Below, piece after piece: positions 38,877 to 42,162 of a stretch of DNA of 47,819 nucleotides. The notes under the pieces were generated by a model. That model was not told where the DNA came from, did no database searches, and worked only from the letters and a program-made list of their open reading frames with translations. How positions within the stretch are numbered: position 1 is the stretch's first letter; each line of letters opens with the position of its first letter. The DNA is from a virus (lineage: Duplodnaviria > Heunggongvirae > Uroviricota > Caudoviricetes): IMG/VR virus record IMGVR_UViG_2534681833_000010; one strand, written 5' to 3'. A program made the translations under genes and the position numbers.

Positions 38877-38893
38877 ATTGCTCTAATAAATAT
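38877..38893 (+). promoter_or_regulatory. C1 repressor operator in the divergent intergenic region
   Basis: ATTGCTCTAATAAATAT, 16/17 to consensus. Confidence 0.7.
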
Positions 38894-38964
38894 TGTTTTT
38901 TATATCGTGTTTTCGGTACCATTCAGCCATCGCCCTTCAATGGGCATTAGTTAGGAGTCGTCAG

Positions 38965-39249
38965 ATGCAGATGGAGCTAATAAGCCGCAAGGAGTTCGAT
39001 AGTCGGGTAACTAGCGGTGAACTCGACAACTTGCAGGCTATCAAGGTGAAAGAAGGCTTTTGCCTCATTGGGAATCAGAGCGGAACAAATCGCGTTTTTA
39101 TGCTTCGCCGTACGGATCTGAAGCCATTTGTCTGGAAGAACGAAATTGGTCCCAGCTCATACGCTCAAACGAGGGGGTGCCATAACCTGACCTTCTTCTA
39201 CAAAGACGAGCTTTCTGTGGTTGATATTCAAGGGTTACAACATGTTTAA
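38965..39249 (+). CDS. hypothetical protein upstream of the RdgC homolog
   Basis: About 94 aa from MQMELISRK; first gene after the C1 operator. Confidence 0.35.
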
Positions 39250-40147
39250 GCACTGGAAAAACATTTCTATTTATAAAGTTTCTCGTGAGGCGGATCTGAC
39301 CGACTTAGAAGATAAAAATAAAATGATCCTATTCACGCCATGCGGTAGCCAGGATATGGCCAAGTTCGGTTTTGTATCGCCATTTGGTGATAATTCCGAA
39401 GTGATCGCTATGCATGGAAATGGCTTTATCCTTGTTGAAGCAAAGCGCGAAACAAAAATTCTTCCCTCGCCGGTTATCCAGCGAGCTATTCAAGAAAAAA
39501 TTGAAAAACTTGAGCAAGAACAAGCGCGTAAACTGAAGAAAACAGAGAAGGACTCCCTGAAAGACGAAGTTCTGCATTCTCTTCTGCCACGGGCTTTTTC
39601 AAAGTTTTCTGTTATCCAGGCGATCTACGACGGTTCAACTAAACGTATCTATATCAATGCCAGCGCACGGCAGGCAGAGGATATGCTCGCGCTTATGCGT
39701 AAGTCTCTGGGTTCTCTTCCTGTTGTTCCCCTGAGTGTTGAAAATCCCATTGAATCAACGCTGACCGACTGGGTACGTGATGGTAGTGCTCCACAGGGAT
39801 TTCAAATGGGGGATGCGGCAGAACTTAAGGCAGTGCTTGAGGATGGCGGTATTGCTCGAGTGAAAAAGCAGGATTTGGGAAGCGATGAAATTTCCACACA
39901 CCTGGAAGCTGGCAAGCTCGTCACAAAGTTGGCACTCGACTGGCAGAACCGCATTAAATTTACACTGGACCATAATTTCAGCCTTACCAGCGTCAAATTT
40001 GCGGATGAATTGCTTGAGCAGAACTCTGATATTGATAGTGAAGATGTTGCGCAGCGACTGGACGCAGATTTCTTCCTGTTAACCAGTGAAATTTCGTGCC
40101 TGGTTGATGCTCTGGTAAATGCCCTGGGCGGAGAGGCTAAGCAGTGA
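39242..40147 (+). CDS. hrdC: RdgC-family recombination-associated protein homolog
   Basis: Strong similarity to E. coli RdgC (..[67 protein letters not shown]..). Confidence 0.75.
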
Positions 40148-42162
40148 GAGAGCTGTGCTATGGATCTGTTTGCAGTGGAATTGAAGCCGCGAGCATTGCA
40201 TGGGAACCGTTGGGTATGCGTCCGGCGTGGTTTGCTGAAATCGAGCCTTTTCCATCTGCCGTTCTTGCGCACCGCTGGCCCCATGTCGCGAACCTTGGCG
40301 ACATGACAAAACTCGCCCAAAAAGTCCAGGCCGGAGAAATTGAAGCCCCTGATGTGCTCGTCGGGGGTACGCCTTGTCAGGCATTTAGTATCGCGGGATT
40401 AGGTGGTGGGCTTGATGATGAACGCGGCGCGCTAACTTTGACGTATGTGGAGCTTGCAAATGCAATTGACGACAAACGGGCTGAGTCATTTCTCAAACCA
40501 GCAGTTATCGTCTGGGAAAATGTCCCAGGAGTCTTGTCATCGGCAGATAACGCCTTCGGATGTTTCCTTGCCGGATTGGCTGGAGAAGATGCGCCATTCG
40601 AACCAGGTGATCGACCTGAATCAGGAAAAAGTAACGCGTTCTGGCGGTGGGATGTCAAAACCGGTTGCCATGCTCCAAAGTGGCCGCAGTGTGGTTGTAT
40701 TTATGGACCGCAGCGAAAGGTGGCCTGGAGAATCCTTGATGCCCAATACTTCGGAGTGGCACAACGACGCCGACGCGTGTTTGTTGTCGCAAGTGCTCGA
40801 ACAGACCTCGATCCCGCAACGGTACTTTTTGAGTTCGAAGGCGTGCGCCGGAATATTGCGCCGAGCAGAGGCGAGGGGAAGGAAACTACCAGATATACTT
40901 CAAACATCGCTATCAGAACTTGCGATGATACAAACATAATTGCCATGGCACATGGGCAAGGAGGGGCTGAGATAAAAACCGATAATTCGGCACCAACTTT
41001 GACATGTAACCATGAAGCACCAATTGTATTGCTCGGCGACGGTAGAATGCGCCGTCTTACCCCTGTCGAATGTGAAAGGCTGCAAGGTTTTCCTGATGGG
41101 CATACGTTGATCCCGACGGAAAAGCGTAAAAAAGTTAATTCAGATGAACTGGCATATCTTCGCAATCACTATCCAGATTTAAGCGAAGAAGAGGCCGCGA
41201 TGCTTGCAGCTGACGGACCGCGTTACAAAGCGATCGGCAATAGTATGGCAATACCAGTAATGCGCTGGATTGGCGATCGGATTACTAAGGCCGTATGTCG
41301 GCAGAAAGAAGGAAGTGAAACAAAAGAGCGAAAAGTTAAACCAGCGGCAGAATTCGAACGGTCCATATTCAAATGGGCTGGTGGAAAATTTGGTGTTCTG
41401 GAACAAATCTTTCGCTATTTGCCAGAAGGGAAGCGCCTGATTGAACCTTTCGTTGGTGGCGGAGCTGTCTTCATGAATGCCGGATACCAGGAAAATCTGC
41501 TAAATGATGTGAATGCTGACCTGATTAACTTTTACAAGACTCTGCAACGCGAGGCGAATTCACTTATCACTCTGGCACATCGTTTCTTCCAGGACTACAA
41601 CACACAGGAAGGATACCTGGCAGTACGGAATGCGTTTAACAAACAAGTCTATGATGATTTACATCGCGCAGCGGCGTTTTTGTTCCTGAACCGACATTGT
41701 TTTAACGGATTGACGCGTTACAACCAGGCCGGTGAGTTCAATGTCGGTTATGGGAAGTATAAAACTCCGTATTTCCCATTACAGGAGATGGAAGCCTTCC
41801 TCGGTGCGGAAGGGCGGTCTGAGTTTGTATGCGGTGATTTTGCAGCGGTGATTGAAGCTGCCGGAGAAGGAGATGTCATCTTTTGCGATCCGCCGTATGA
41901 ACCGCTTCCAAATACAGAGGGATTCACGAACTATTCCGGTCATGACTTTAAGTTTGAAGAGCAAAAACGCCTGGTGTCTCTGTTGACGGATGCTCATCGT
42001 CGAGGTGCAAATGTTCTCATTACTAACAGTGGCGCGCCAAACATCAGAGAGCTTTATCATGACAGTGGCTTCAGAGTGGAACCTCTTTTTGCCAGACGTT
42101 CTGTGTCTTGTAAGGGAGACACTCGTGGTGTTGCTCATGACGTTATAGCAATATTGCTCTAA
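40144..42162 (+). CDS. dmt: bifunctional DNA methyltransferase Dmt (N-terminal C5-cytosine MTase, C-terminal Dam-like N6-adenine MTase)
   Basis: C5-MTase motifs ([16 protein letters not shown]) in the N-terminal half; Dam-like motifs (KWAGGKF, DPPY) in the C-terminal half; stop overlaps a C1 operator. Confidence 0.7.

Follow-up and report, generated by a model that had tools for sequence, protein, structure and literature searches.

Positions 38877-42162 raise the question of what is joined there behind a single repressor operator, and of what the resulting combination of a small protein, an RdgC homolog and a two-domain DNA methyltransferase would do for the phage that carries it. The segment belongs to a stretch of 47,819 nt, the whole of the DNA analyzed and hereafter called the window. 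The coordinates of all features are collected in Table 1.

Table 1. Features of the uhr-hrdC-dmt unit and of its 3' boundary, in window coordinates
Feature	Positions	Strand	Remarks
C1 repressor operator Odmt (formerly Op68), monovalent	38877-38893	+	ATTGCTCTAATAAATAT, 1 mismatch to consensus ATTGCTCTAATAAATTT
Sigma-70 promoter Pdmt	38893-38922	+	Position transferred from the P1 annotation; sequence identical to P1 there
Pdmt -35	38893-38898	+	TTGTTT; first base common to the operator
Pdmt -10	38917-38922	+	TACCAT; spacer to -35 of 18 nt
uhr	38965-39249	+	94-aa protein; Shine-Dalgarno AGGAG at 38953-38957
hrdC	39242-40147	+	301-aa RdgC-family protein; 8-nt overlap with uhr
dmt	40144-42162	+	672-aa bifunctional DNA methyltransferase, P7-type allele; GTG start overlaps hrdC TGA (GTGA, 4 nt)
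C5-cytosine methyltransferase domain	40144-41328	+	~aa 1-395; Pfam PF00145, TIGR00675
Target-recognition domain cassette of the C5 domain	40864-41049	+	~aa 241-302; P7 type, single 'APTLT' module; sole segment differing from P1 Dmt
Dam (D12-class N6-adenine, GATC) methyltransferase domain	41356-42153	+	~aa 405-670; PF02086, TIGR00571
Divalent C1 operator Oban of the next operon	42153-42180	.	Annotated in P1 and P7
Oban a	42153-42169	+	0 mismatches
Oban b	42164-42180	-	2 mismatches

Identity and transcriptional control of the operon

The segment almost certainly corresponds to the early operon Pdmt-uhr-hrdC-dmt of the P1 family, carried here by a P1/P7-like phage-plasmid of Escherichia, and this is the best explanation of the observations as a whole. 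The operon is already described and not new; Lobocka et al. (2004), in their account of the P1 genome, reportedly describe it as Pdmt/Odmt(Op68)-uhr-hrdC-dmt. DNA comparison of the region 38500-42500 gave 96-97% nucleotide identity to phages P1 and P7. At the protein level, the alignments displayed 99% identity for Uhr and 98% for HrdC with their P1/P7 counterparts, and for Dmt 97% identity to the Dam protein of P7 and 91% to P1 Dmt. The gene order, with overlapping stop and start codons, and the location between upfC and the Oban/tRNA region are those of P1 and P7. The GenBank records of P1 (AF234172 / NC_005856) and P7 (AF503408) list this very operator and promoter together with the three genes, under the names Op68/Odmt, Pdmt, uhr, hrdC and dmt. 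The sequence-only reading agrees with these annotations: it described a unit gated by C1, in which a small protein is followed by a full-length RdgC homolog and by a 672-aa fusion of Dcm-like and Dam-like methyltransferases. Its coordinates are right, and the end that it proposed, 42162, is that of the dmt stop codon.

The P7 unit, Op(dam)-upf64.0-hrdC-dam (AF503408), shares the operator, gene order and overlaps of the window with 97.0% nucleotide identity over 4 kb, and its Dmt has the same length and the same recognition cassette. It differs by scattered substitutions only, apart from a divergent stretch that precedes the operator (38840-38876). In P1, the operator and promoter are identical to those of the window, the catalytic core and the Dam domain of Dmt are near-identical, and the unit is likewise preceded by upfC and followed by Oban, tRNA-Asn and tRNA-Thr. 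Conservation of the unit extends to 498 PLSDB plasmids, and dmt is 100% identical in DNA to that of plasmid NZ_CP122822.1. The best 80 of 204 confirmed IMG/VR loci are all of the P1 family, at 97-99% identity, because a single-protein query retrieves only close relatives. Among these 80, a hrdC homolog is found in every locus, the exact operator 17-mer lies upstream in 72, and a full-length dmt follows hrdC in 73 of the 78 loci that could be scored. The operon of the window is an ordinary, common P7-type allele of a known P1-family unit; it is a textbook component of the P1/P7 genome, and the window itself matters little.

The 17-bp asymmetric C1 operator overlaps the -35 element of the promoter. 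A pattern scan of the window returned 5 matches to the C1 consensus against 0.24 expected by chance. Operator and following promoter are identical to those at Op68/Odmt of P1, and the operator is identical to that of P7; binding and repression by C1 rest on the P1 annotation, whose Op68 entry is found under locus PP1OP68A / M25413. A generic promoter scan also returned an alternative hexamer pair at 38868-38896, which likewise overlaps the operator. In a lysogen, C1 bound to this single operator, abutting or overlapping the -35 of a host sigma-70 promoter, would keep the unit off. Upon infection or induction, the unit would be transcribed, presumably as one message in which uhr, hrdC and dmt are translationally coupled through their overlaps of 8 and 4 nt. 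An RNA-seq preprint on P1vir reported that hrdC and dmt shift in the same direction, both being under-induced at 10 min and again at 20 min, and that uhr is down at 20 min (bioRxiv 10.64898/2025.12.28.696737). The 3' boundary of the unit is marked by Oban, which includes the dmt stop codon. No terminator-like hairpin was returned by the hairpin scan from dmt up to 42343-42375; dmt and the ban operon are not separated by a terminator, which leaves the transcript without a defined 3' end. The 'dicF-like region' of P1 located downstream was not recognized by Rfam, even at E <= 1.

HrdC, the Dam domain and the question of restriction

Curated NCBIfam models for rdgC, dam and dcm all scored above their cut-offs on the proteins of the unit. 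E. coli RdgC binds DNA as a ring-shaped dimer and inhibits RecA; its segment LLPRAFS contains the important residues R118 and F120. HrdC keeps this segment and is 61% identical to the E. coli protein (PDB 2OWL) over the full length, from which it differs in being phage-borne and presumably co-transcribed with a methyltransferase. It matches Pfam RdgC (PF04381) at E 1.2e-98 and 330.6 bits (cut-off 25) over model positions 3-298 of 298, and NCBIfam NF001462 (rdgC) at 379 bits (cut-off 330); across the family, hrdC evolves with a dN/dS of ~0.08. By homology, HrdC is a candidate recombination modulator, which would most likely sit on duplex DNA as an RdgC-like ring dimer and damp RecA-mediated reactions on replicating phage DNA. 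The literature searched for HrdC function yielded nothing specific. In a P1 CRISPRi screen performed on a Dam+ host, uhr, hrdC and dmt were all non-essential for lytic growth (PMC10695390), and therefore no phenotype backs the roles proposed here for HrdC and for the C5 half of Dmt.

Dmt is a fusion of two domains, with a C5-cytosine methyltransferase at the N terminus and a Dam at the C terminus. The latter matches Pfam MethyltransfD12 (PF02086; E 4.2e-56, 190.9 bits) and TIGR00571 (249.5 bits, cut-off 114.85), carries motif I FxGxG as FVGGG (436-440) and motif IV as DPPY (582-585), and is under purifying selection (dN/dS 0.11). It aligns at E 1.7e-58 to E. coli Dam (PDB 2G1P; residues 5-267 of 278), with KWAGGK, FVGGG and DPPY conserved, whereas the residue equivalent to P134 of the recognition hairpin is Gly in Dmt. 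T4 Dam is far less similar (E ~1e-8), and both the E. coli and T4 enzymes differ from Dmt by lacking a fused C5 methyltransferase. Since the domain is near-identical in P1 Dmt, which is reported to methylate GATC (PMC12707154), the same specificity is inferred for the window. The GATC methylation by Dmt is required for pac cleavage and packaging and frees the phage from host Dam (PMC12707154; PMC4190342). In the window, the Dam domain would likewise provide independence from host Dam for cleavage of the GATC-rich pac site, and presumably also for methylation-dependent origins; oriR, with five clustered GATC sites at 36568-36624, lies 2.3 kb upstream.

A different purpose was assigned to the operon by the sequence-only reading, namely that of an early anti-restriction and genome-maintenance package, which would self-methylate incoming or replicating DNA in order to escape host restriction. 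As the primary function of the operon, this appears rather doubtful to us. Dmt is indeed an orphan methyltransferase: no cognate endonuclease gene is adjacent, hrdC lying on one side and the leader of the ban operon, with its tRNAs, on the other, and both methyltransferase domains match PADLOC orphan and Type II methyltransferase models. Alleles that are otherwise near-identical have exchanged their C5 cassettes, so that at least four architectures exist, as would be expected of a restriction arms race, and phage methyltransferases are reviewed as arraying several recognition domains in order to evade many restriction-modification systems (PMC12707154). However, a methylase transcribed only after entry acts too late to shield the incoming genome; in P1, entry is protected by the virion proteins DarA/DarB (PMC10999674). 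The only documented phenotype of Dmt is packaging in Dam- hosts (PMC12707154; PMC4190342), and a restriction phenotype of dmt was not reported in the literature searched. Nor is GATC depleted in the window (191 sites, with an expectation of 179±11), and Dam is already present in the usual hosts. Because post-entry methylation cannot guard incoming DNA, the anti-restriction reading is supported in part only: what is documented for the Dam half is packaging and not anti-restriction, whereas an anti-restriction role of the C5 half is plausible in view of its swapped cassettes and of the purifying selection acting on its core. Any such gain would go to the progeny DNA, which C5 methylation would mark against restriction in the next host and in later ones.

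The C5 domain and its recognition cassettes

The C5 domain matches Pfam DNA_methylase (PF00145; E 7.3e-35, 121 bits) and TIGR00675 (114 bits, cut-off 100.65) and aligns to M.HhaI and M.HaeIII. Motifs IV (GTPCQ, with C78), VI (ENV, 125-127), VIII (QRRRR, 207-211), IX (aa 303-317) and X (GNS, 365-367) were read from the alignment; their order is canonical, and motifs VIII and IX flank the recognition domain. The motif I-like segment VCSGIEA (aa 9-15) keeps the first Gly and displays Glu at the second position of the canonical FxGxG; it is invariant in all alleles. With its catalytic motifs intact, the C5 domain of the P1-family operon most likely methylates cytosine within a sequence set by the exchangeable cassette, here of the P7 type.

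It was nevertheless considered whether function is confined to the Dam half, the C5 half being left over from an ancestral fusion and either inactive or of structural value only. No report of C5 methylation by Dmt was found in the literature searched, the P1 GenBank record states only 'perhaps at C5 cytosine', and the NCBI pipelines label Dmt merely as 'Dam family'; the motif I is non-canonical (CSGIE), and dmt is dispensable in the CRISPRi screen mentioned above. These points are outweighed by others, which render an inactive C5 half improbable. The catalytic motifs IV (PCQ), VI, VIII, IX and X are invariant in 7 of 7 aligned alleles, and the C5 core, with a dN/dS of 0.15-0.18, is as constrained as the active Dam domain. 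The dmt reading frame is intact over its full length in the 73 of 78 family loci counted above, and the recognition cassettes are swapped in frame. Moreover, about a quarter of the alleles of relatives contain a LAGLIDADG intein, inserted exactly at the catalytic cysteine, a location typical of functional, conserved motifs.

The preferred reading, in which the C5 half is an active enzyme, leads to the diversity of its specificity. P1 Dmt has 754 aa, with an unrelated cassette, longer by ~82 aa, between motifs VIII and IX, and its cytosine target therefore probably differs from that of the window. The distribution of the cassettes was obtained by tblastn against plasmids and phages, as the use of the cassette as a short query against a 5.8-billion-protein database produced almost no useful matches. 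Full-length copies of the P7-type cassette occur in 184 PLSDB plasmids and those of the P1 type in 257, which places the allele of the window second in frequency. The C5 recognition domain is thus modularly swapped among relatives, whose Dmt proteins may carry two or three tandem recognition modules (three in those of 807-862 aa). The allele of the window has one module only, and no intein.

These observations fit a wider scheme, which we hold to be about as probable as its opposite: the C5 half of P1-family Dmt would be an active methyltransferase with swappable specificity, its P7-type, P1-type and three-module cassettes being shuffled among phage-plasmids as a counter-restriction arms race, while a homing intein at the catalytic-cysteine codon spreads independently of the cassette type. 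If so, the window carries a minimal, single-specificity, intein-free allele. This reading of Dmt, with its shuffled cassettes and homing intein, is absent from the literature searched, where nothing specific was found on a Dmt intein. The Bacillus phages SPR, phi3T and rho11s likewise carry orphan C5 enzymes whose specificity resides in modular domains between motifs VIII and IX, and the concept of multispecific phage C5 methyltransferases is cited in PMC12707154. The enzyme of the window differs by its single short module and its Dam fusion, and shares only the C5 fold with them in sequence. P1-like phage-plasmids are widespread in Enterobacteriaceae, where they carry resistance genes, and a variable self-methylation module could affect which hosts they enter.

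Late transcription and coding content

It is very unlikely that an internal, Lpa-dependent late promoter within dmt also yields a Dam-only product late in infection, and the candidate was set aside as weak on account of its -10 mismatch and of the absence of a consensus match. In the P7 record, a late promoter named 'LPdam2' is predicted within dam; if it were real, dmt would not be under operator control alone. The equivalent site of the window, 41132-41150, keeps 8 of the 9 bases of the -22 box and lies upstream of the Dam domain, whose activity is needed late for pac cleavage. Its -10 sequence TGAACT, however, does not have the A at position 2 found in 6 of 6 accepted P7 late promoters, and the more heavily annotated P1 record contains no internal late promoter. 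A late-promoter consensus, AAGTKACTT-N4-TANNNT, was derived from the six annotated P7 late promoters and used to scan the window: it matched 5 times elsewhere (0.31 expected), with no match at the candidate site and no canonical late promoter in or near the unit.

Minus-strand ORFs of up to 172 aa within the unit were taken as spurious, because neither the P1 nor the P7 annotation contains an equivalent. In its composition, the unit displays no foreign-DNA signature apart from a slightly higher GC in the C5 core.

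Identity and control of the operon

The window belongs to a P1/P7-like phage-plasmid (Punavirus). Positions 38500-42500 display 97.0% identity to P7 (AF503408) and 96-97% identity to P1 (AF234172 / NC_005856). The closest plasmid, NZ_CP122822.1 from E. coli of pig faeces, covers 88% of the second half of the window at 100% identity, which ends at about 46473. The unit under study had been described in a sequence-only reading as a C1-controlled operon joining an RdgC homolog to a C5-cytosine/N6-adenine methyltransferase fusion, and it is annotated exactly so in the GenBank records of P1 and P7. 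Both include a monovalent C1 operator (Odmt, formerly Op68; Op(dam) in P7) and the genes uhr (upf64.0), hrdC and dmt (dam); the sigma-70 promoter Pdmt is additionally annotated in the P1 record. The boundaries then proposed coincide exactly with the start of the operator and the end of the dmt stop codon. The description is thus confirmed; it concerns an operon already known from P1 and P7, uhr-hrdC-dmt, which is present here as the common allele of the P7 type.

The C1 consensus is matched five times in the window, against 0.24 matches expected by chance. One of these matches opens the unit and, together with the promoter that follows, is the same as in P1 and P7 at every base. A late-promoter consensus (AAGTKACTT-N4-TANNNT) was built from six annotated P7 late promoters. 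Scanning of the whole window returned five exact sites, against 0.31 expected by chance, with no match within or beside 38877-42162. The equivalent of the 'predicted LPdam2' of P7, at 41132-41150, was judged weak: its -22 box agrees at 8 of 9 positions but its -10 sequence, TGAACT, is poor, having no A at position 2, where this base is invariant. LPdam2 is not annotated in the P1 record. As no consensus late promoter lies in or near the unit and the LPdam2 site is poor, Pdmt/Op68 is the sole recognisable control point of the unit.

At the other end, the divalent Oban operator (42153-42180) contains the dmt stop codon in its first half, and no terminator-like hairpin is found after dmt before 42343-42375. 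With no defined end to its transcript, the unit therefore runs up against the following C1-controlled operon (tRNAs, tciABC, ban). The hairpin falls within the 'dicF-like region' of the P1 record; no Rfam match to DicF was obtained there even at E ≤ 1.

Elsewhere in the window, the sok antitoxin RNA match implies that the phage-plasmid has a toxin-antitoxin locus of the hok/sok type. The RNA-OUT match lies downstream of a tRNA gene (anticodon CAT) and points to an insertion sequence of the IS10 family (IS4-like) close to the 3' end of the window.

Coordinates of the features in the window and in the relatives' loci (L003-L007)
Feature	Position (strand)	Remark
C1 operator 17-mer ATTGCTCTAATAAATAT	38877-38893	consensus match
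Promoter -35, TTGTTT	38893-38898	
Promoter -10, TACCAT	38917-38922	
uhr	38965-39249	Shine-Dalgarno AGGAG 38953-38957
hrdC	39242-40147	ATG start 8 nt ahead of uhr stop
dmt	40144-42162	GTG start in GTGA overlap; TAA stop 42160-42162
Unoccupied intein site in dmt	40372-40380	
Single-module P7-type recognition cassette of dmt	40864-41049	
GATC cluster, oriR	36568-36624	five GATC within 57 bp
Late-promoter match	3807-3825 (-)	19-nt core identical to P7 LPdar
Late-promoter match	6809-6827 (+)	
Late-promoter match	10954-10972 (-)	19-nt core of P7 LPs, 3 differences in spacer
Late-promoter match	23490-23508 (-)	
Late-promoter match	31804-31822 (-)	
immI immunity region	20906-21188 and 22574-22590	
C1 operator matches in immI	20906 and 22574	
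C4 a1/b1 target	20983-21035	immI
C4 antisense RNA	21103-21188	immI
sok antitoxin RNA	24643-24817 (+)	full-length Rfam match, 114.9 bits
RNA-OUT	46519-46588 (-)	full-length Rfam match
Loci compared for modules	L005:1501-4089, L006:1501-3924, L004:1501-4947	
Intein	L003:1732-2754	NZ_CP028125.1; also L004, L007 and 18/78 scorable loci of L009-L088 (IMG/VR)

Proteins encoded by the operon

The assignment of the two larger products to the RdgC family and to a C5/N6-adenine methyltransferase fusion is unambiguous in both Pfam and NCBIfam, the curated cut-offs of the NCBIfam rdgC, dam and dcm models being all passed. HrdC (301 aa, 98% identical to P1/P7 HrdC) matches the whole Pfam RdgC model (E 1.2e-98) and shares 61% identity over its full length with E. 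coli RdgC, whose ring-dimer structure has been solved (2OWL). In Dmt, Pfam places a C5 DNA_methylase domain at residues 8 to about 395 and a D12-class N6-adenine domain at residues 411-643. The former displays motifs IV (GTPCQ, with the catalytic Cys78), VI (ENV), VIII (QRRRR), IX and X (GNS), and an atypical motif I (CSGIE). The latter keeps KWAGGK, FVGGG and DPPY and can be aligned over its whole length with residues 5-267 of E. coli Dam (2G1P; E 1.7e-58). No endonuclease gene lies beside dmt, and both methyltransferase activities are thus orphan.

Uhr (94 aa, 99% identical to P1 and P7 Uhr) received no family assignment in profile searches (Pfam, NCBIfam, PADLOC), and its homologs are limited to P1-like elements from Escherichia and Salmonella. 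It is an orphan confined to P1-like elements. The label 'nucleoside triphosphate pyrophosphohydrolase' (RefSeq, PHROGs) was discarded, as it is supported by no profile, homolog or fold match.

Alleles of dmt, recognition cassettes and intein

P7 Dmt is 672 aa long, like that of the window, and 97% identical to it, whereas P1 Dmt reaches 754 aa. The latter departs from the window protein only between motifs VIII and IX, where the sequences are unrelated; C5 enzymes have their target-recognition domain there. PLSDB contains 498 plasmid records with dmt, almost all of them P1-like replicons classed as non-mobilizable; a full-length cassette is of the window/P7 type in 184 of these and of the P1 type in 257. 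A second, independent census used the best 80 of 204 confirmed P1-family IMG/VR loci, 78 of which were scorable: 34 contained the P1-type allele (754 aa), 17 the P7-type allele of the window (672 aa), 18 an intein-containing allele (960-1148 aa), 5 a three-module intein-free allele (807-862 aa) and 4 other truncated or frameshifted forms (11-565 aa). One 960-aa intein-bearing ORF is also devoid of the Dam motif, bringing defective ORFs to 5/78 overall. The window allele is thus the second most common form and not a novelty.

The C5 recognition region is modular. Besides the single-module P7-type and the P1-type cassettes, three-module composites (807, 862 and 1148 aa) reuse P7-like or P1-like modules along with further ones. 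In the 807- and 862-aa intein-free alleles the three modules are arranged in tandem, one of them sharing ~75-78% identity with the core of the module found in the window. Such alleles recall the multispecific C5 methyltransferases known from Bacillus phages. Neither a multi-module Dmt nor a Dmt intein in P1-like elements was found described in the literature searched, the coverage of which was incomplete.

About a quarter of the P1-family dmt alleles contain a 341-aa Hint + LAGLIDADG insertion, counted in 129 PLSDB plasmid records in addition to the IMG/VR loci. It is located exactly between Pro77 and the catalytic Cys78, in the PCQ motif of the C5 domain, starts with Cys (CFTAGH) and ends with His-Asn, so that Cys78 becomes the +1 residue. 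Judging from these residues, the insertion is a canonical class-1 intein with the catalytic cysteine of the methyltransferase as its predicted +1 nucleophile. It is found with either cassette type and its spread is therefore independent of the cassette. Since the window Dmt is intein-free, its unoccupied site is a potential homing site.

Function of the two methyltransferase halves

Adenine methylation was reportedly found to be needed by P1 oriR by Abeles and Austin in 1987. The GATC cluster of the window corresponds to oriR, the plasmid origin that depends on methylation, as annotated in P1 and P7; its location, 2.3 kb upstream of the operon encoding the phage's own Dam, is consistent with this need. 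The methylation requirement at pac is said to go back to Coulby and Sternberg in 1988 and Sternberg and Coulby in 1990. GATC methylation at pac is needed for P1 packaging, which renders dmt essential in Dam- hosts (PMC12707154; PMC4190342).

Concerning the C5 half, the P1 record words the activity of Dmt as 'perhaps at C5 cytosine', and nothing on C5 methylation by Dmt was found in the literature searched. Pairwise comparison of family alleles gives a dN/dS of 0.15 in the C5 core and 0.18 in motifs IX-X; in the Dam domain, whose activity is established experimentally, the value is 0.11, and in hrdC it is 0.08. The dmt ORF is intact in 73/78 loci, and recognition cassettes are swapped in frame between alleles. 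It is argued from the low dN/dS, the intact ORFs and the cassette exchange that the C5 half is probably a maintained enzyme and not a relic. That it acts as a specificity-swapping module in this phage-plasmid family is a proposal to which an even chance may be given.

The functional interpretation made from the sequence alone, an anti-restriction and genome-maintenance package, is partly supported. Anti-restriction of incoming DNA fails mechanistically because Dmt is made only after entry; protection at entry is ensured in P1 by the virion proteins DarA and DarB (PMC10999674). For the C5 half, a role in protecting the DNA of the progeny once it reaches the next host would be plausible, an idea that cassette exchange fits. 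The 'genome maintenance' role of HrdC is a guess made from homology.

In a genome-wide CRISPRi screen, uhr, hrdC and dmt were non-essential on a standard host (PMC10695390). According to a P1vir RNA-seq preprint, hrdC and dmt shift in the same direction, both being under-induced, at 10 min as well as at 20 min, and uhr is down at 20 min (bioRxiv 10.64898/2025.12.28.696737), a behavior compatible with a single transcript.
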